DNA from: Shimwellia blattae DSM 4481 = NBRC 105725
GTDB lineage: Bacteria; Pseudomonadota; Gammaproteobacteria; Enterobacterales; Enterobacteriaceae
Assembly (NCBI RefSeq): GCF_000262305.1
Contig: NC_017910.1
Location: 1,481,422-1,505,421, forward strand
Length of the DNA stretch: 24,000 nucleotides
Direction of reading: 5' to 3'
How positions within the stretch are numbered: the stretch's first letter is position 1; each line of letters opens with the position of its first letter. Of the stretch, positions 1,511-9,801 are shown in pieces. The position numbers and the translations under genes were made by a program. The notes under the pieces are model-generated. The model saw only the letters and a list, made by a program, of their open reading frames with translations, was not told the origin of the DNA and did not search any database.

Positions 1511-2635
1511 TCAGAAAGAGCGATGGAAGTTGGCGATGGGCAGTACCGGTACTGCGGCGTTGGTTGCCACGTTAATCAGACCAATTTGTAAACCTTCCAG
1601 GTTATTGGTGACGTTCACCAGACCAATCTGGAAGTTTGTCGCGCTGGCGCTGTTTAACAAGCCGAAGTCGAAGGTGCTGCTGCCGGTGGACATGTTTACC
1701 ACCCCGAGGTTCATGCCGGTCACGTTGTTGGCTACGTTAAATGCGCCCAGGTTCATACCGGTGACGTCATGTGACAAGTTAATCGCCCCCATGTTGAAAC
1801 CGGTGACATCGCCGGTCCAGTTCAGGGCGCTGATGTTGGCGCCGGTCATATTGCCGGATTTATTAAATCCCGCCACGTTCAGGCCGGTAACATCGCCGGA
1901 GACGTTAACAATCCCCGCATTCACCCCGGTAATTTTACCTTCGCTCCAGTTACCCAGTGCGCCAATATTGACCCCCTGAACATCGGCGGTGTGGTTAAGC
2001 AGCGAGACGTTCAGGCCCTGCGTGTTGCCCGCGGTCCAGTTAAGTGGCGCAACGTTCACCCCTTTGACTTCGCCTCCGGTATAGTTACCCACCCCGACGA
2101 TATTGGCACCATAAATGCTGCCTTCGGTATCATTCCCCAGGCCTACGGTGTTCAGGCCGGTAATATTGCCGGTTGAATAGTTCCCAAGGCCCGCCAGGTT
2201 CCAGCCGGTGGCATTGGCGGTGGTGTTGGCAAGGCCCAGGTTAAGGCCCGTCATGTTGGCGGTGCCGCTGTAAAGGCCAATGCTGGCACCGTTGAGGTTA
2301 CCAAGCTGGTTAGCCAGGCCAATATTCAGGCCGTTATCTTCGCCCCCGTGCCAGTTAAACAGGTTAAGCGCCATCCCGTTCATACCGTTACGGATATGGT
2401 CACCACCGACACCCAGCTCCAGCCCGTTCAGTTTGTCCATTTCCGTATAACCGAGGATCGGCATATCAACACCGTTAACGGTGCCGGTTTGCCCGTAGAG
2501 AAATGTACCGTGGAAACCGTTGACCTCGGTATCATCCGGAAGATTGCCGAAAGAGGAGAGCTGCACCGGGGCCGCATAACCCGCGCCGGATACCAGTGCG
2601 CATGACAGTAATAAACCTAGTGTTGAACGTTTCAT
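1511..2635 (-). CDS. Secreted Asn/Gly-rich repeat protein (about 16 tandem 14-16-residue repeats); family not recognised
   Basis: It has a Sec-type signal peptide (MKRSTLGLLLSCALVSGAGYAAP). The repeats follow N-x-[ST]-G-x-[VI]-[TQ]-G-[LVFM]-N-[VIML]-[GA]-x-[LIVF], for example NVSGDVTGLNVAGF / NKSGNMTGANISAL / NWTGDVTGFNMGAI / NLSHDVTGMNLGAF. The protein ends in ...ANFHRSF, an aromatic C-terminal residue as in outer-membrane proteins. GC is similar to the core. Confidence 0.75.
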   Translation of the reverse strand: MKRSTLGLLLSCALVSGAGYAAPVQLSSFGNLPDDTEVNGFHGTFLYGQTGTVNGVDMPILGYTEMDKLNGLELGVGGDHIRNGMNGMALNLFNWHGGEDNGLNIGLANQLGNLNGASIGLYSGTANMTGLNLGLANTTANATGWNLAGLGNYSTGNITGLNTVGLGNDTEGSIYGANIVGVGNYTGGEVKGVNVAPLNWTAGNTQGLNVSLLNHTADVQGVNIGALGNWSEGKITGVNAGIVNVSGDVTGLNVAGFNKSGNMTGANISALNWTGDVTGFNMGAINLSHDVTGMNLGAFNVANNVTGMNLGVVNMSTGSSTFDFGLLNSASATNFQIGLVNVTNNLEGLQIGLINVATNAAVPVLPIANFHRSF

Positions 2636-3059
2636 TTTTTTCCCTGTTTTTCTTATGCAGAAAATCCGCAGTTATGTTGGTGCACTGTTTTAATGGTTTT
2701 ATTATCCACAGCCATCATGGCAGGTGGGTAATAAATGTACTGGTCATGCATACTTATAAACAGCGACACCCATTGGATATAAAATACCGCGCTGTGTTAA
2801 TCAGGATTCGCTAAATGTGCCGCTAAGAAATATTAATATGAATGAATTGTGCTTATCGTCCATTGTCAAGTACCATATGGGCGGTGATTATTGCCCCCGG
2901 TGATTAATGTCTGACCGGGGCGATAGTTTATTATCCGGTGGAAACCTCTTTCTGCGATTTCCCCGCACAATGGCTCTTTTCCGCTAATCATATTGTCATC
3001 GCGGTATGTTATTGATATTTGTGGCAATTAAGGTAATTTTTAAATTTTTCTACCGGTAC

Positions 3060-3625
3060 GGTATTCCGTATTTGGATGATTACGAACAGCAGTGATCACC
3101 GCATTCTATCTGTCACTCGGTCTGTTCTGCCACAATGACTGGCTGGGTGAAAAAATTCTGTATCTGCAGCAAACCGTAGGGCACGAGAAAAGCGCAGGGA
3201 TCTCTAAGGCTGTTTGTATACGTTTCCCTTATCTTCAGTTTCTTATGTAATTGATGGTATTGATTGGGAGTAAATAAAATATCCAGTCGTAAAACCTGAC
3301 TATTTATTGTCGTTAAATAAATTCTGGCAAATAGAAAACTGATAACATCATAAATAGTAGAATAATACCAACAATGGAAAGTCGCACTTTTACACGTAAC
3401 CAATTGGTGTACTGATTAGGAAGCTCTTTAATGAAACGTATTTGTTCATTATTCATTCCCCGCGTATGAAATGAGTTTTCTTTAAAGTATAATGCTTTAA
3501 TAAAGAATGCATCACGCATAAATGAGAAAAATAACCCCCCATCCTGATAAATTAAAACTTCAACTGGTCTTGCTCCAAATTTTTCAACAAATAGCGAGCA
3601 AAGAGTAATGAATTTATTTTTCGAA
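3060..3625. repeat. Repeat D, copy A (3' two-thirds of immunity-like gene A plus about 250 bp downstream tail); pairs with 5626-6191
   Basis: Collinear with 5626-6191 at a constant offset of 2566 bp with no net indel. Identity is roughly 90-95% by eye. Confidence 0.85.
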
Positions 3626-3735
3626 GCACGATCGTAAATGATGGAAATAATAACCGTAAGTATTAGGCATAAACACAATGCTAATCCAATCGGGTTTCGA
3701 TACATAATTATAAAATTAATTACCGAAAATTTCAT
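3313..3735 (-). CDS. Two-TM membrane protein, candidate immunity protein for the upstream glycine-zipper ORF (paralogue A)
   Basis: 140 aa counted from ATG 3735 (MKFSVINF...). I prefer this to the track start at 3750 because GGAG lies 8 nt upstream, the ATG overlaps the upstream stop (GTATGAAA), and the paralogue starts at the equivalent MKLSAINF. It has hydrophobic N-terminal (IGLALCLCLILTVIISII) and C-terminal (LSIVGIILLFMMLSVFY) segments. Confidence 0.7.
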   Translation of the reverse strand: MKFSVINFIIMYRNPIGLALCLCLILTVIISIIYDRASKNKFITLCSLFVEKFGARPVEVLIYQDGGLFFSFMRDAFFIKALYFKENSFHTRGMNNEQIRFIKELPNQYTNWLRVKVRLSIVGIILLFMMLSVFYLPEFI

Positions 3736-4097
3736 ACAGCTGTTCTCCACCCTAATGTCCCAACAGCACTTCCCACTGTACTACCAGCGTACCCTAAACC
3801 AACACCAGCAACACCACCGCCCGTACATAAAAACCGGGATCGAAGGGATAATTTAATGTCTGGGGTGAGGTAGCCCGGCACCTTGGGAAAAACAATTACA
3901 GTGACACGGTGGCAACCCTCAGCACTAAATACAGTTTTAAATAACCCACTGTATTTTTTGTGCTGATTTATTTGATACCCGCCTACAACTTTCCTGGCGA
4001 GTATCGTGTTGCAAGTCCTGTAAGTCCATTGTACACAGCAGGCTAGTTTGTTATTGACTTCATTACCGCTCGTTAGGCGGTTGATCTTTCGTTCCAT
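3732..4097 (-). CDS. Small ORF with a C-terminal glycine-zipper segment; candidate Hcp-associated membrane-active effector (start uncertain, may be partly degenerate)
   Basis: This is a 121-codon ORF open in AT-rich DNA immediately 3' of hcp. The C-terminus CTGGGVAGVGLGYAGSTVGSAVGTLGW is a G-x3-G zipper. Its stop is coupled to the next gene by an ATGA overlap. Against it: ATG 4097 lies 25 nt inside hcp with no SD, and the first ~90 residues are Cys-rich with rare codons. Confidence 0.4.
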   Translation of the reverse strand: MERKINRLTSGNEVNNKLACCVQWTYRTCNTILARKVVGGYQINQHKKYSGLFKTVFSAEGCHRVTVIVFPKVPGYLTPDIKLSLRSRFLCTGGGVAGVGLGYAGSTVGSAVGTLGWRTAV

Positions 4098-4564
4098 GAG
4101 TCTGTGTACTGGATATTACCATCAAGAATTTTCCATGTTATTTTTTCATACTGCAGGCTGACGCTTTCAACGTGATTCATTTTGTCATTACCAGCCAGTT
4201 TAACGTTTGGTACGCCACAATTAACGCCTGTTATTTTCACATTTTCCATAAGGACCGAGTAATAACAAACCTCTTGTCCGGCATGGTTGATATGATAAAA
4301 ACGAATTTCAGCACTTTTCAGAGTTTGTCCTGTTGCTGCTGCTTTGTACAGGTAGGGCGTAGAGCTATCAACTTCTTTTTCAATCATCATTGATGAATGC
4401 TGGCGAGTACCGGTAATCTTACCATTGGCATTATCTACTGGAATATTAATCCCGTGGCTTAATCCAATGATCTCTATGCTTCCATCTCGATCCTGAACAT
4501 CTACAGAACCTTTAATATCTGCTCCACCATCGTCTTTAATCCACATATACGGAGGGATAGGCAT
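4073..4564 (-). CDS. hcp: Hcp (T6SS tube protein, TssD), orphan copy
   Basis: 163 aa. MPIPPYMWIKDDGGADIKGSVDVQDRDGSIEI..., SSTPYLYKAAATGQTLKSAEIRFY and ...YEKITWKILDGNIQYTDSWNERSTA closely resemble Salmonella and E. coli Hcp as I remember them. AGGAG lies 9 nt upstream of the ATG. Confidence 0.92.
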   Translation of the reverse strand: MPIPPYMWIKDDGGADIKGSVDVQDRDGSIEIIGLSHGINIPVDNANGKITGTRQHSSMMIEKEVDSSTPYLYKAAATGQTLKSAEIRFYHINHAGQEVCYYSVLMENVKITGVNCGVPNVKLAGNDKMNHVESVSLQYEKITWKILDGNIQYTDSWNERSTA

Positions 4565-4565
4565 T

Positions 4566-4838
4566 TTATTTTCTCCTGATTAATTTGAACGCTAGCATGG
4601 TTAAAATGTAAAGCACGGTTGTTATTGAAAAAATACTGATTACTGATATATAAACGTAGAGTTCATAAAAATTATCTGCTCCAGGCTCTTCTGAATCATA
4701 GATAAATCGCCCTAATTCGAGTGTTAAATTGTGATTCATCCATATTTCCGGGGGGCCAATTGCGCGTCCTACACATAAAGACAGAAGGATGTAATATAAT
4801 ATTTTTGAAGTTTTACGAACAAATATAGGTATAGTCAC
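4566..4838 (-). CDS. Small membrane protein, candidate immunity protein for the Tlde1-like effector (start uncertain)
   Basis: It sits in the classic immunity position between the effector and hcp. Its stop is 1 nt before the hcp ATG. I chose GTG 4838 (GAGG about 9 nt upstream) over the track start at 4862; ATG 4736 is an alternative. There are hydrophobic segments ILYYILLSLCVG and LYVYISVISIFSITTVLYILTMLAF, with a loop of about 35 aa between them. I recognise no similarity to Tldi1. Confidence 0.5.
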   Translation of the reverse strand: MTIPIFVRKTSKILYYILLSLCVGRAIGPPEIWMNHNLTLELGRFIYDSEEPGADNFYELYVYISVISIFSITTVLYILTMLAFKLIRRK

Positions 4839-5334
4839 TGGCAACCACCTCAATCCAGCCACGGGCCATAAGGGAACGCATACAGGGAACCTGAATCAGT
4901 GATGTGTTCATTAACGCATTACGGATTTGCGCATAATCAGAATTGTGGGCAATGGTGATGCAACCTTCTGAAATAGTTCCTGGGTGAAGTCTGAATAACC
5001 CCCTATAGACGCCGTCTATCCATGTTCCGTCATCAATGCCCCAGTCATCCCGATAGAGAGCAAACCATTCATTATGCCCAAATTGGGTGCCGTTATAAAT
5101 TTTATTAAATAAATCAAGAGATTTTTCTCTTATTTTTGATACCAGTCCACCAGAACCACGATCAACAATCCAGTATTTACCTGGCGGTATTGGCCCTTCT
5201 CCTTTAACAGCACCACATGCGCCTTTGTTTCTGTAAATACTATTACCGGAAAAGGCCATAAATACGCCCACACCATACAGATTGAAGGGGGCGTAATCTG
5301 CGCCGTTTAATATCATTTTCCCTTGCAGTGCCAC
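4813..5334 (-). CDS. tlde1: Tlde1-like (DUF2778) T6SS effector; predicted L,D-transpeptidase-fold peptidoglycan-targeting toxin
   Basis: FMAFSGNSIYRNKGACG..GPIPPGKYWIV, NEWFALYRDD and FRLHPGTISEGCITI (a His...Cys signature) match my recollection of DUF2778/Tlde1 proteins encoded beside hcp in Salmonella SPI-6. GTG 5334 has AGGA 5 nt upstream, and it is retained in the duplicated copy. ATG 5316 is an alternative start. Confidence 0.72.
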   Translation of the reverse strand: MALQGKMILNGADYAPFNLYGVGVFMAFSGNSIYRNKGACGAVKGEGPIPPGKYWIVDRGSGGLVSKIREKSLDLFNKIYNGTQFGHNEWFALYRDDWGIDDGTWIDGVYRGLFRLHPGTISEGCITIAHNSDYAQIRNALMNTSLIQVPCMRSLMARGWIEVVASDYTYICS

Positions 5335-5564
5335 AGGAATCCTGTTTCTTCTGACCGTTCAGAACATTAATTTTACAGTTCTCTCCTTCGGCATGCTGGA
5401 AATACTTTCTCGGAAAAGAACTTAAAATTAAACGTATTCAGGTTAAATTAAACCTATTTGCTATTCATTATTAAGCCGCTGATAGTTCATTTTATTAATT
5501 ATGATGAGAGTAATATATAACACGGATACCCAAAAGGGGCTCTGCATACCTGGTGCTGCGCCGT
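5330..5564. repeat. Repeat R, copy 1 (235-bp upstream/leader region of the tlde1-hcp operon); pairs with 6335-6569
   Basis: Aligns with 6335-6569 at a constant offset of 1005 bp. I counted 13 mismatches in 235 bp and no indels. Confidence 0.9.
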
Positions 5565-5625
5565 AGTGGCAGGTACGAACATGGCGAAGATCGGCAAAGT
5601 GTTTGCTGATGTTCGAGATCAGTTG

Positions 5626-6191
5626 GGTATTCCTTATCTGGATGATTATGGATAGCGGCGGTTACTGCATTCTATCTGTCATTCGGTCTGTTCTGCCACA
5701 ATGACTGGCTGGGTGAAAAAATTCTGTATCTGCAGAAAACCGTAGGGCACGAGAAAAGCGCAGGGATCTCTAAGGCTATTTGTATACGTTTCCCTTATCT
5801 TCAGTTTCTTATGTAATTGATGGTATTGATTGGGAGTAAATAAAATAGTCAGGCGTAAAACCTGACTATTTATTGTCGTTAAATAAATGCTGACAAATAG
5901 AAAACTGATAGCATCATAAATAGTAAAATAATACCGACGATGGAAAGTCGCACTTTTACACGTAACCAATTGGTGTACTGATTAGGAAGTTCTTTAATGA
6001 AGCGTATTTGTTCATTATTCATTCCCCGCGTATGAAATGAATTTTCTTTAAAATATAATGCTTTAATAAAGAATGCGTCACGCATAAATGAGAAAAAGAA
6101 TCCACCATCCTGATAAATTAAAACTTCAGCTGGTTTTGCTCCAAATTTTTCAACAAATAGAGAGCATAGAATCATGAATTTTCTCTTAGCT
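5626..6191. repeat. Repeat D, copy B (3' two-thirds of immunity-like gene B plus downstream tail)
   Basis: See copy A at 3060-3625. Confidence 0.85.
5846..5868 (-). terminator. Rho-independent terminator of immunity paralogue B
   Basis: tagtcagg/cctgacta forms a perfect 8-bp stem with a 7-nt loop, 10 nt after the stop at 5879. On the minus strand it is followed by TTTTATTTA. In copy A (about 3281-3302) the left arm is disrupted. Confidence 0.6.
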
Positions 6192-6301
6192 AACTTGTCA
6201 TAAATCACGTAAGAAACATAATTAATTATTCCAAGAATCAAAAAGATCCCAGCGATTTCAACTCGATATGTCGTTATAAAATTAATTGCCGAAAGTTTCA
6301 T
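5879..6301 (-). CDS. Two-TM membrane protein, orphan immunity-like paralogue B
   Basis: 140 aa (MKLSAINF...). Residues 45-140 differ from paralogue A at 5 positions, while residues 1-44 are only about 40% identical. GGAGGAG lies upstream, and the ATG overlaps the TGA of a 13-codon scar ORF. Confidence 0.7.
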   Translation of the reverse strand: MKLSAINFITTYRVEIAGIFLILGIINYVSYVIYDKLAKRKFMILCSLFVEKFGAKPAEVLIYQDGGFFFSFMRDAFFIKALYFKENSFHTRGMNNEQIRFIKELPNQYTNWLRVKVRLSIVGIILLFMMLSVFYLSAFI

Positions 6302-6339
6302 ACAACTGTTCTCCTCCTAATTCCCCGATGCGGAGCCAC
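6298..6339 (-). pseudogene. 13-codon fusion mini-ORF: the tlde1-type GTG start joined in frame to the last ~9 codons of a glycine-zipper toxin gene (deletion scar or coupling leader)
   Basis: The sequence reads GTG GCT CCG CAT CGG GGA ATT AGG AGG AGA ACA GTT GTA TGA. The first 5 nt and everything upstream match R1 and the tlde1 start. The last ~30 nt match the 3' end of ORF 3732-4097 (GGG ACA TTA GGG TGG AGA ACA GCT GTA TGA). The TGA overlaps the ATG of paralogue B. Confidence 0.55.
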
Positions 6340-6569
6340 AGGAATCCTGTTTCTTCTGATCGTTCAGGACATTAATTGTACAGTTCCCTCCCTCGGCATG
6401 CTGAAAATACTTTCTCGGAAAAGATCTTAAAATTAAACGTATTCAGGTTAAATTAAACCTGTTGGCTATTCATTATTAAGCCGCTGATAGTTCATTTTAT
6501 TAATTATGATGAGGGTAATATATAACGCGGATACCCAAAAGGGGCTCTGCATACCTGGCACTGCGCCGT
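6335..6569. repeat. Repeat R, copy 2
   Basis: See copy 1 at 5330-5564. Confidence 0.9.
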
Positions 6570-6737
6570 TGTTCGCCCACCCCGGTGCTGGCGGCTGTAA
6601 AGGTAGCGGGACATATTCACAGGCAGCCCTGATACAACGCCAGTGATTCAGGCTACACATTTACGCCGTTATATGATGTACTAATGGACTGTGTGAAAAT
6701 ACGTAATTTACTGTAAGACAAACAGAATCTACGTTTA

Positions 6738-6866
6738 AAGACTCGGGGTGCCCTTCCTGGTGAAGGCTGAGAAATACCCGTACCACCTGATCTGGATAAT
6801 GCCAGCGTAGGGAAGTCTGATATCTGACCGGTATCTCTTCCCGCGCCGGGCAGGAGCGTTAACCCT
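6738..6866 (+). ncRNA. TPP (THI-box) riboswitch in the thiMD leader
   Basis: gactcggggtgccc...ggctgagaaatacccgtaccacctgatctggataatgccagcgtagggaag is almost the E. coli thiM aptamer as I remember it. The downstream segment ctcttccc can mask the AGGAG SD at 6852-6856, just before ATG 6867. Confidence 0.9.
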
Positions 6867-7655
6867 ATGCAGCCTGATCTGCTGAGCGGCCCGCAGGCCG
6901 CCGATACTCTTCAACAATTACATTCCCGCGCCCCCCTGGTGCACTGTATGACTAACGACGTGGTGCAGGCTTTTAGCGCCAATGTGTTACTGGCGCTGGG
7001 GGCGTCCCCCGCGATGGTGACTGATGCCGGAGAAACCCGCCAGTTTGCCGCCATTGCTGATGCATTACTGATAAACACCGGCACCTTAACCCGCCCGCAG
7101 GCACAGGCGATGATGGCTGCTATTGAGGCGGCCCGGCAGGCGGCTAAACCCTGGGTACTGGATCCCGTTGCGGTGGGGGCGCTGCACTTTCGCAGTGAGT
7201 TTGCCCGCCAGATCCTGGCATTAGCGCCGGCGGCTATTCGCGGTAATGGCTCGGAGATCCTTGCCCTGGCAGGCCTGTCCGGCGGTGGCCGTGGGGTCGA
7301 CACAATGGAGAGCGCCAGCGCCGCCATTCCGGCCGCCCGGGCGCTTGCCCGGCAGACCGGCGCTGTTGTGGCGGTAACCGGTGAAACCGACTACGTCACC
7401 GACGGTGAGCGGGTGCTGGCCGTGCCCGGCGGGGATATTCTGATGACCCGGGTCGTGGGAACGGGCTGCGCCCTGTCTGCGGTGGTCGCCGCCTGCTGCG
7501 CGCTCCCCGGGAACCGGCTGGAGCATGTGGCGGCAGCCTGCCGGATAATGTCCGCCGCCGGGAGCCAGGCCGTCACCACCTGTCGCGGCCCGGGCAGTTT
7601 TGTGGCGGATTTTCTGGATGCACTTTATCAACTGGATGCGAGGACACTGGCATGA
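6867..7655 (+). CDS. thiM: Hydroxyethylthiazole kinase
   Basis: 262 aa. [32 protein letters not shown] and [19 protein letters not shown] match E. coli ThiM. Confidence 0.95.
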
Positions 7656-9681: not shown

Positions 9682-9767
9682 AAAAAATCGGCCTGCCCGA
9701 GGGAGATCGGGCAGGCCAAGGAGGTGGTTCCTGGTATAGGTTGCTTTGTAGGATATGTAATTGCAGC
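9682..9767 (-). ncRNA. cyaR: CyaR (RyeE) Hfq-dependent sRNA
   Basis: The minus strand reads GCTGCAATTACATATCCTACAAAGCAACCTATACCAGGAACCACCTCCTTGGCCTGCCCGATCTCCCTCGGGCAGGCCGATTTTTT. It contains the conserved CyaR seed ACCAGGAACCACCUCCUU, then an 11-bp terminator stem (9690-9717) and a U6 tract. As in E. coli, it lies just downstream of yegQ. Confidence 0.85.
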
Positions 9768-9801
9768 ACGGCGAATCATACGGATATCCGACAAAACAGT
9801 G

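Follow-up and report, generated by a model that had tools for sequence, protein, structure and literature searches.

Probable remnants of a deleted PAAR-domain toxin beside two putative orphan immunity genes in a thiM-adjacent island of Shimwellia blattae

Orphan immunity genes accompanied by remnants of their effectors are a known kind of locus. [quoted passage not shown] The locus described here lies in a window (the whole stretch of DNA that was analysed) of 24,000 nucleotides from Shimwellia blattae DSM 4481 = NBRC 105725 (contig NC_017910.1, positions 1,481,422 to 1,505,421). Anchors of 50 nt, taken every 500 nt along the window, are all identical and collinear in the S. blattae assembly GCA_000327265.1. 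In this window, an open reading frame (ORF) of 121 codons, called ORF121 below, directly follows a T6SS hcp gene and had been proposed in an earlier note, made from the sequence alone, as a small Hcp-cargo effector paired with the immunity protein of the next gene. The analysis leads with high confidence to another reading, in which ORF121 is a chance frame ending in the remnant of a deleted PAAR toxin of ~460 residues, and the island, which adjoins thiM, holds two orphan immunity genes with effector remnants.

As in the V. cholerae orphan immunity arrays and in orphan Rhs and contact-dependent inhibition (CDI) modules, a resident effector would have been replaced and the old immunity gene kept behind a short effector 3′ end. 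The accumulation of several divergent immunity alleles in tandem is also shared with the V. cholerae arrays, in which the retained genes are thought to guard against neighbours that still carry the old effector. Two alleles are kept in S. blattae without a toxin at the locus, which fits the V. cholerae model (PMC5361080). Unlike the V. cholerae arrays, the S. blattae site is a small orphan island beside thiM and not the 3′ end of a main or auxiliary T6SS cluster, the displaced effector is a PAAR-fused, putative membrane toxin, and the incoming module ends with hcp, which creates a misleading adjacency of hcp and toxin stump.

Glycine-zipper or pore-forming T6SS toxins with inner-membrane immunity proteins include Tse4/Tsi4, Ssp6/Sip6, Tse5-CT/Tsi5, Tme1/Tmi1 and Tke5/Tki5 (PMC6889166, PMC7046647, PMC13133200). 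The parent toxin of the S. blattae remnants resembles Tse4, Ssp6, Tse5-CT, Tme and Tke5 in its glycine-rich hydrophobic C-terminus, in having no detected enzymatic domain and in the small membrane protein encoded immediately downstream; like Tse5 and some Tme members, it also carries a PAAR-type delivery domain. The parent toxin, whose activity is putative, has no detectable sequence relationship to Tse4, Ssp6, Tse5, Tme or Tke5, and its 140-aa putative immunity protein has two transmembrane (TM) helices, whereas Tmi proteins have 3-6.

The island has a low GC content (30-45% GC), extends from roughly 2650 to 6850 in the window and lies between GC-rich genes on the arnE/F side and the thiamine pyrophosphate (TPP) riboswitch with thiM/thiD. 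The minus strand carries all of its genes, in the order 140-aa gene B, tlde1, orf90, hcp, ORF121 and 140-aa gene A (Table 1). ORF121 (4097-3732) is present as the earlier note had described it, with an ATG located 25 nt inside hcp (4564-4073) and no Shine-Dalgarno (SD) motif in the upstream sequence ACACAGACTC. The glycine zipper reported for its last ~30 residues is real as well, since the C-terminus, LCTGGGVAGVGLGYAGSTVGSAVGTLGWRTAV, contains overlapping G-x3-G/A/S motifs, and the TGA of ORF121 overlaps the ATG of 140-aa gene A (GTATGAAA). The GGAG before this ATG was also found, at a spacing of 9 nt and not of 8 nt, and the neighbouring protein has the N- and C-terminal hydrophobic helices attributed to it. 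The tail of ORF121 remains below TM-level hydropathy. The N-terminal ~90 codons are Cys-rich and use rare codons, as had been flagged together with the possibility of a decaying gene; this part has no homolog, and the part that follows carries a +1 frameshift.

The origin of the glycine-zipper tail becomes apparent from loci in which the corresponding toxin gene is present. Loci L001-L011 were recovered with a profile of the family and L020-L023 were added, K. pneumoniae and K. michiganensis among them, which gives 15 loci with intact or decaying toxin genes. In all of these, the 140-aa gene lies directly 3′ of a PAAR-domain ORF of 453-470 aa, with an overlap of 20 nt. In blastn comparisons of the island with the intact loci, homology begins at 3811 in copy A (11 intact loci) and at 6326-6332 in copy B; a MAFFT alignment suggests that the homology of stump A reaches back to TGTAC at ~3826, with a 6-nt indel. 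Of a toxin gene of ~1.4 kb, copy A retains ~110 nt and copy B 30-50 nt. The zipper tail of stump A is ~90% identical at the DNA level to the 3′ ends of real toxin genes and is therefore not a product of chance. A tblastn comparison of an intact toxin with the whole window matched only the last 11-14 residues, at 3751-3719 and 6326-6285, and tblastn found no trace in the window of PAAR sequence from either PAAR gene. Thus, only the last ~30 codons of ORF121 are homologous to anything, namely to the C-terminal end of the 453-470-aa PAAR proteins, and the small effector of an unrecognised family that had been proposed is a fragment of a larger known gene, an outcome that the earlier note itself had listed as speaking against its proposal.

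Stump A reads GGGACATTAGGGTGGAG where the intact genes read GGGGAATTAGGCGGAG, which corresponds to a +1 insertion near 3752-3760. The frame is therefore shifted, and ORF121 ends with GTLGWRTAV at the TGA 3734-3732; the ancestral frame still reads GGEQLYEIFGN up to the TAA 3718-3716. For the 244-nt junction between the hcp stop and stump A, blastn against L001-L011 and the E. coli module locus L018 found nothing similar. Before immunity gene B, a copy of the tlde1 leader (253 nt, 92% identity) runs as far as GTGGC, the 5 nt with which tlde1 begins, and the toxin's last ~30 nt follow directly. Since GTGGC is also found in the type-1 toxin 3′ end, the junction may have been formed by microhomology-mediated deletion.

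The parent gene of the stump appears to encode a PAAR-fused ("specialised") T6SS effector, composed of an N-terminal PAAR motif, a well-conserved helical middle and a C-terminus reading CSVGREAECTKKKYTEIGSFALGTGGGVLAGGGAIPLCVAIGVGTAGVGGLVCTVIAGVGLGYAGSTVGSAVGELGGEQLYDVFGN before the stop; in L001-L011, the toxin ends with CSVGREAECTKKKYTEIGSFALGTGGGV followed, after a gap, by AGVGLGYAGSTVGSAVGELGGEQLYDVFGN. PAAR_motif is the only Pfam domain in the intact toxins. Among four intact homologs, PF05488 was detected in three (3e-14 to 5e-7) and fell below the cut-off in the fourth, and precomputed PF05488 hits exist for most of 120 listed proteins. The C-terminal region consists of ~65 glycine-rich residues with a hydrophobic core of ~45 residues, and residues ~393-433 form the sole strongly hydrophobic region of the protein. 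No enzymatic domain was found in Pfam or NCBIfam, and a PDB sequence search with the toxin profile gave no hits. In an AlphaFold2 model, the PAAR domain is modelled well, and residues 263-458 have a predicted local distance difference test (pLDDT) score below 50.

The toxin family comprises 473 hits, among them a K. pneumoniae cluster of 1171 sequences, and nearly all members carry the name "PAAR domain-containing protein". Clustered at 90% identity, the K. pneumoniae 458-aa toxin (P0121) is grouped with 140-aa "hypothetical protein" members as well, which probably represent fragments of the toxin or an artefact of the clustering. In K. pneumoniae and K. michiganensis, a three-gene cassette is found, composed of a small PAAR protein, the PAAR-toxin and the 140-aa gene, and such a second, small PAAR protein (155-172 aa) directly precedes the toxin in most loci (L002, L004, L007, L008, L011 and L020-L023). 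The toxin ORF is disrupted in two loci, L004 (4659-6020, Erwinia typographi) and L006 (Enterobacter sp. UNJFSC 003), where it is interrupted by stops and the immunity gene is intact; these look like intermediate stages of the decay seen in the S. blattae window. The K. michiganensis cassette (L022, 6075-10780) is intact and lies beside the thiM TPP riboswitch and thiM/thiD, and in Siccibacter (L001, cassette at 3841-6423) sequence matching the thiM side of the window (6734-7655) is found just upstream of the cassette. Because of these two matches, the thiM site that the S. blattae island shares with K. michiganensis, and probably with Siccibacter, is read as a recurrent integration hot spot.

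More distant relatives of the toxin domain are found in Vibrio. Plasmid pVPSD2016-4 of V. parahaemolyticus (L017, 2719-4388) encodes a 435-aa "hypothetical protein" that lacks PAAR and is a homolog of the toxin domain (25% identity across 329 columns, E 5e-18). The next gene encodes a 119-aa protein that has a TM helix at either end and no sequence similarity to the 140-aa family, and such toxin-domain homologs were hit in 65 Vibrio plasmids. Weak hits in Vibrio plasmids had pointed to the Tme family (Fridman et al., 2020) for the parent toxin; this found no support, at an hhalign probability of 9.7% against the E. coli SE11 Tme WP_000908051, the sole exemplar compared, and neither did a relationship of the immunity protein to YkfM/DUF1240 (Tmi), for which the immunity profile gave a probability of 0.4% against YkfM. 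The Yersinia pair T6EC1/T6IC1 (PMC11148199) belongs to a different, colicin-M-like family (DUF3289/DUF943). The BTH_I2691/Tke5 family gave no NCBIfam or Pfam hit and differs in size and delivery domains, which leaves a functional analogy only. The parent toxin/immunity family is without family annotation beyond PAAR in the libraries searched, and a limited literature search found no description of it.

The two 140-aa proteins belong to a family with 84 homologs, all annotated "hypothetical", which occur in Erwinia, Pantoea, Klebsiella, Raoultella, Enterobacter, Serratia, Kluyvera, Leclercia and others. They have two TM helices around a soluble segment of ~70 residues and belong to no family in Pfam or NCBIfam; AlphaFold2 predicts a helical structure (pLDDT 74), for which a fold search of the PDB found no match (best E 4.5). 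Allele A (immA) is 91-92% identical to the immunity genes beside intact toxins in L001, L002 and L022, with a ratio of nonsynonymous to synonymous divergence (dN/dS) of 0.13 against L001 and L002. For allele B (immB), whose product is identical to protein P0025 (Shimwellia blattae), dN/dS is 0.13-0.19 against L004, L005, L008 and L009. Three features by which an orphan immunity gene is recognised were found here: homologs 3′ of the effector at the 15 loci elsewhere, a truncated effector at this locus, and an intact ORF under purifying selection. From gene order and by analogy with described pairs, the 140-aa protein is most plausibly the cognate immunity protein of the PAAR toxin. Since no terminator was found on the minus strand between hcp and immA, and GGAG precedes the ATG of immA by 9 nt, immA is probably co-transcribed with hcp.

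The ~250-nt 3′ flank of each immunity gene also follows the immunity gene in L002, L004-L007 and L009, and second copies of it are found elsewhere in L004, L005 and L009. Its hairpin scores as a terminator at 5871-5843, where it is intact, and is degenerate at 3305-3277. Each copy also holds a 96-aa ORF that looks spurious (3113-3403 and 5679-5969), reaching from the flank into the immunity-gene 3′ end next to it. A simple tandem duplication was rejected as the origin of the two copies: the flanks are 92-94% identical and the 5′ halves of the immunity genes are far more diverged (synonymous divergence, dS, 0.40), and therefore the history must include allele replacement.

Alleles A and B differ mainly in the first, N-terminal TM helix. 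In all loci examined, the toxin tail AGAGLGYVGSSAGGAFGEWGG is paired with A-type immunity and the tail AGVGLGYAGSTVGSAVGELGG with B-type immunity. Between L002 and L009 (~5800-6160), a segment of ~350 bp has 60-84% identity within DNA that is otherwise 95-100% identical, and it covers the last ~70 codons of the toxin, with the glycine-zipper tail, and the first ~50 codons of the immunity gene, with the first TM helix. This segment is a candidate for a polymorphic specificity segment of toxin and immunity protein, an association that linkage alone could also give.

The hcp gene beside ORF121 is part of a different system. Pfam recognises tlde1 (Tlde1_dom, 9e-36) and hcp (T6SS_HCP, 1e-33), and an E. 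coli integrative conjugative element (L018) carries the trio tlde1-orf90-hcp as well, at 74-81% DNA identity. This homology is confined exactly to the stretch between tlde1 start and hcp stop; beyond hcp, the E. coli DNA is unrelated. As the homology ends exactly at the hcp stop, the trio is, from its sequence, a separate, self-contained three-gene module, and the linkage of hcp to the stump is secondary. The Tlde1 (DUF2778) proteins are L,D-transpeptidase-like effectors encoded beside hcp, and the tlde1 of the window, followed by a small TM protein and hcp, is such a system; neither the glycine-zipper stump nor the 140-aa protein is related to Tlde1. In the window, it is Tlde1 that forms the true effector partner of hcp, and the orf90 product (90 aa, with a C-terminal TM helix and an 87-aa counterpart in E. 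coli) is likely its immunity protein. The window has the order effector, small ORF, hcp, in contrast to hcp, effector, immunity in L001; an effector gene placed before hcp is unusual. The proposal of an Hcp-cargo gene is not upheld, as hcp belongs to this module and none of the intact toxins at the loci examined is preceded by hcp.

Searches with ORF121 itself gave no support for a gene. There was no Pfam hit at E<=1, and the Pfam glycine-zipper domains (Gly-zipper_Omp, Gly-zipper_YMGG and Rick_17kDa_Anti) gave no hidden Markov model (HMM) match to ORF121 at E<=1 or to the intact toxins at E<=0.1. In a word-indexed search of 5.8 billion proteins, the only relative was its own 97% copy, which sits on short Logan contigs with a matching tlde1-orf-hcp context. 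An exhaustive HMMER search of 1.84 billion representatives returned, beyond this copy, only P0229 and P0230, which were rejected as homologs; they are repeat proteins that match one stretch of 30-65 residues several times, judged to be chance matches inflated by repetition. The NCBI annotation of the S. blattae contig (L013) calls no gene between hcp and the 140-aa gene; the 121-aa ORF is predicted by some gene callers. The junction had also been considered as a decayed tlde1 5′ end, because QWTYRTCNTILARKVVGGYQ resembles Tlde1 N-termini by eye only; this was ruled out, as ORF121 has no Pfam Tlde1 signal at E<=1 and tblastn of the L001 Tlde1 hits only the real tlde1.

In comparison with a variant strain (L015), the ORF121 region has five substitutions, with the highest substitution density of the comparison in the junction DNA (3829-4072); hcp has three substitutions (one nonsynonymous and two synonymous) and tlde1 has two. 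Four of the five in ORF121 are nonsynonymous and one is synonymous, a pattern that, at these small numbers, fits neutral drift in its direction. An intact T6SS effector gene would be expected to recur at full length as a conserved ORF in other genomes and to have a ribosome-binding site and substitutions biased towards synonymous sites; ORF121 shows none of these, with the reservation of the small numbers for the last. Open frames of at least 121 codons occur in 15% of shuffles of the 4.2-kb island, so that the length of ORF121 alone is not beyond chance, and the island contains other non-genic open frames of ~100 codons (3415-3113, 5981-5679 and 4100-4393). ORF121 is therefore probably a pseudo-ORF, a chance composite and not an effector gene.

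It is accordingly very improbable that ORF121 functions, in full or as a shorter product with the zipper at its end, as a small membrane toxin of the Hcp-cargo kind, with the 140-aa protein as its immunity protein. The frame is open and 97% conserved in the second strain, its stop overlaps the immunity start, and its tail does come from the membrane segment of a real toxin. Of this segment, however, only ~30 of the ~65 glycine-rich residues are kept, part of the ~45-residue hydrophobic core is gone, nothing is left of the ~260-residue helical domain, and the tail falls short of TM-level hydropathy. The start inside hcp without an SD, N-terminal 90 aa without a homolog in the 1.84 billion representatives, the ratio of nonsynonymous to synonymous changes, and the frameshift, which destroys the conserved GGEQLYxxFGN end, argue in the same direction, and copy B shows the same decay, further advanced. 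What stands of the effector/immunity pair proposed in the earlier note is that the zipper peptide derives from a toxin and that its neighbour is most plausibly an immunity gene; ORF121 as an intact effector does not stand.

There is also little to recommend the idea that stump and junction have become a de novo or chimeric small gene, translated, for instance, from the GTG that is codon 73 of ORF121 or through re-initiation behind hcp, with a role other than killing, for example in regulating or stabilising the immunity protein or the island. It would agree with a frame that is open in all S. blattae-like contigs and with the probable co-transcription with hcp and immA; against it, the frame is not conserved outside one species, shows no sign of purifying selection and has a length reached by chance in the island shuffles mentioned above. 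A further explanation, held to be just as unlikely, assigns the 140-aa proteins an accessory function for the PAAR toxin, for example as chaperones or in membrane insertion, and would make their retention incidental. Their lack of a Pfam or NCBIfam family or a PDB fold match leaves room for it, and the immunity role is putative. Yet two intact alleles under purifying selection after the loss of the toxin are expected of immunity genes and not of helpers, a place immediately 3′ of the toxin gene, overlapping it by 20 nt, is where an immunity gene would sit, the toxin tail and the N-terminus of the 140-aa protein share the polymorphic segment, and it is small inner-membrane proteins that neutralise the known T6SS membrane toxins (PMC13133200, PMC7046647).

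Under the preferred reading, ORF121 as a pseudo-ORF with a toxin remnant at its end, the ancestral cassette, which other genera still carry intact, consisted of a small PAAR protein, a toxin of ~460 aa and a 140-aa immunity gene overlapping the last 20 nt of the toxin gene. Illegitimate or homology-facilitated recombination would have removed nearly the whole toxin and brought in the tlde1-orf90-hcp module, and stump A, by chance in frame with 250 nt of stop-free junction DNA and an ATG inside hcp, would have given rise to the 121-codon ORF. The parent protein is predicted to be a membrane-inserting, depolarising toxin that would place its glycine-zipper tail in the inner membrane of the target cell. 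The two-TM protein would neutralise it within the membrane, with the toxin tail and the first immunity TM helix as specificity determinants, and the two kept alleles may protect S. blattae from neighbours armed with the two toxin variants.

Several points weigh against this reading. The functions of toxin and immunity protein are deduced from gene order, the PAAR fusion, hydrophobicity and analogy, and the toxin-domain model is poor, so that it lends no fold-level support to pore formation. The strain comparison comprises only the five ORF121 substitutions, and the frame is open in every S. blattae-like contig seen, so that it may be translated. The two copies agree with more than one order of duplication, deletion and allele replacement. 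In addition, stump A is a type-2 toxin tail beside a type-A immunity gene, a mismatch which shows that the pairing of tail and immunity protein is not absolute or that the junction is recombinant.

A broader proposal, tentative and on balance doubtful, is that the parent belongs to a family of T6SS membrane toxins that would be widespread in Enterobacterales including K. pneumoniae, and in which a small PAAR protein accompanies a PAAR-toxin, whose C-terminus would form a glycine-zipper hairpin, and a two-TM immunity protein of 140 aa. Specificity would be set inside the membrane, where the last ~70 residues of the toxin pair with the first TM helix of the immunity protein; the ~350-bp segment would be the specificity region, and the two S. 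blattae alleles would cover both variants. In a more extreme version of this proposal, the zipper stump would be translated as a small membrane peptide that is checked by immA.

Table 1. Features of the window discussed in the text (positions in the window; aa, amino acids)
Feature	Position	Strand	Basis or description
ORF121	3732..4097	-	chance composite open frame: 8 codons read out of frame within hcp, ~82 codons of unconserved DNA behind hcp, toxin stump (probable reading)
Toxin 3′ stump A (about 30 codons; PAAR-domain glycine-zipper toxin)	3716..3828	-	blastn, MAFFT alignment, translation
Junction DNA, hcp stop to toxin stump	3829..4072	-	blastn: no homolog
Putative orphan immunity gene allele A (immA), 140 aa	3313..3735	-	TM segments at residues 8-38 and 112-140
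Putative orphan immunity gene allele B (immB), 140 aa	5879..6301	-	77% identical to allele A
Second, shorter toxin 3′ stump B, ending GELGGEQLYETFGN and stop, fused to tlde1 leader copy	6282..6332	-	blastn, alignment, translation, junction sequence
3′ flank of immunity cassette, including hairpin after the gene	3060..3312, repeated 5626-5878	-	repeat D1, 94% identical
tlde1-orf90-hcp module	4073..5334	-	tlde1 5334-4813, orf90 4837-4566, hcp 4564-4073
tlde1 leader (repeat D2)	5315..5567, duplicated 6320-6572 upstream of immunity allele B	-	92% identity
TPP riboswitch upstream of thiM	6734-6830	+	75.9 bits
CyaR/RyeE small RNA	9685-9769	-	73.4 bits
374-aa protein of Gly/Asn-rich repeats	1511-2635	-	adjoins the island on the arnE/F side

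The 374-aa repeat protein next to the island matches the NCBIfam VC2662 family (1e-58) and also the LA_2272 surface repeat.

The analysis removes a false effector candidate, and the 121-aa ORF is better annotated as a toxin remnant or pseudogene. The two-allele "immunity islet" of S. blattae at the thiM hot spot is in keeping with the idea that bacteria build up a stock of immunity genes against the T6SS toxins of their neighbours. The remaining interest lies in the parent cassette and its sharply localised polymorphic segment. The compact cassette of PAAR protein, PAAR-toxin and putative two-TM immunity protein is common in Klebsiella, Enterobacter, Pantoea and Serratia, and its narrow polymorphic segment would offer a tractable system for the recognition of a membrane toxin by its immunity protein within the bilayer.

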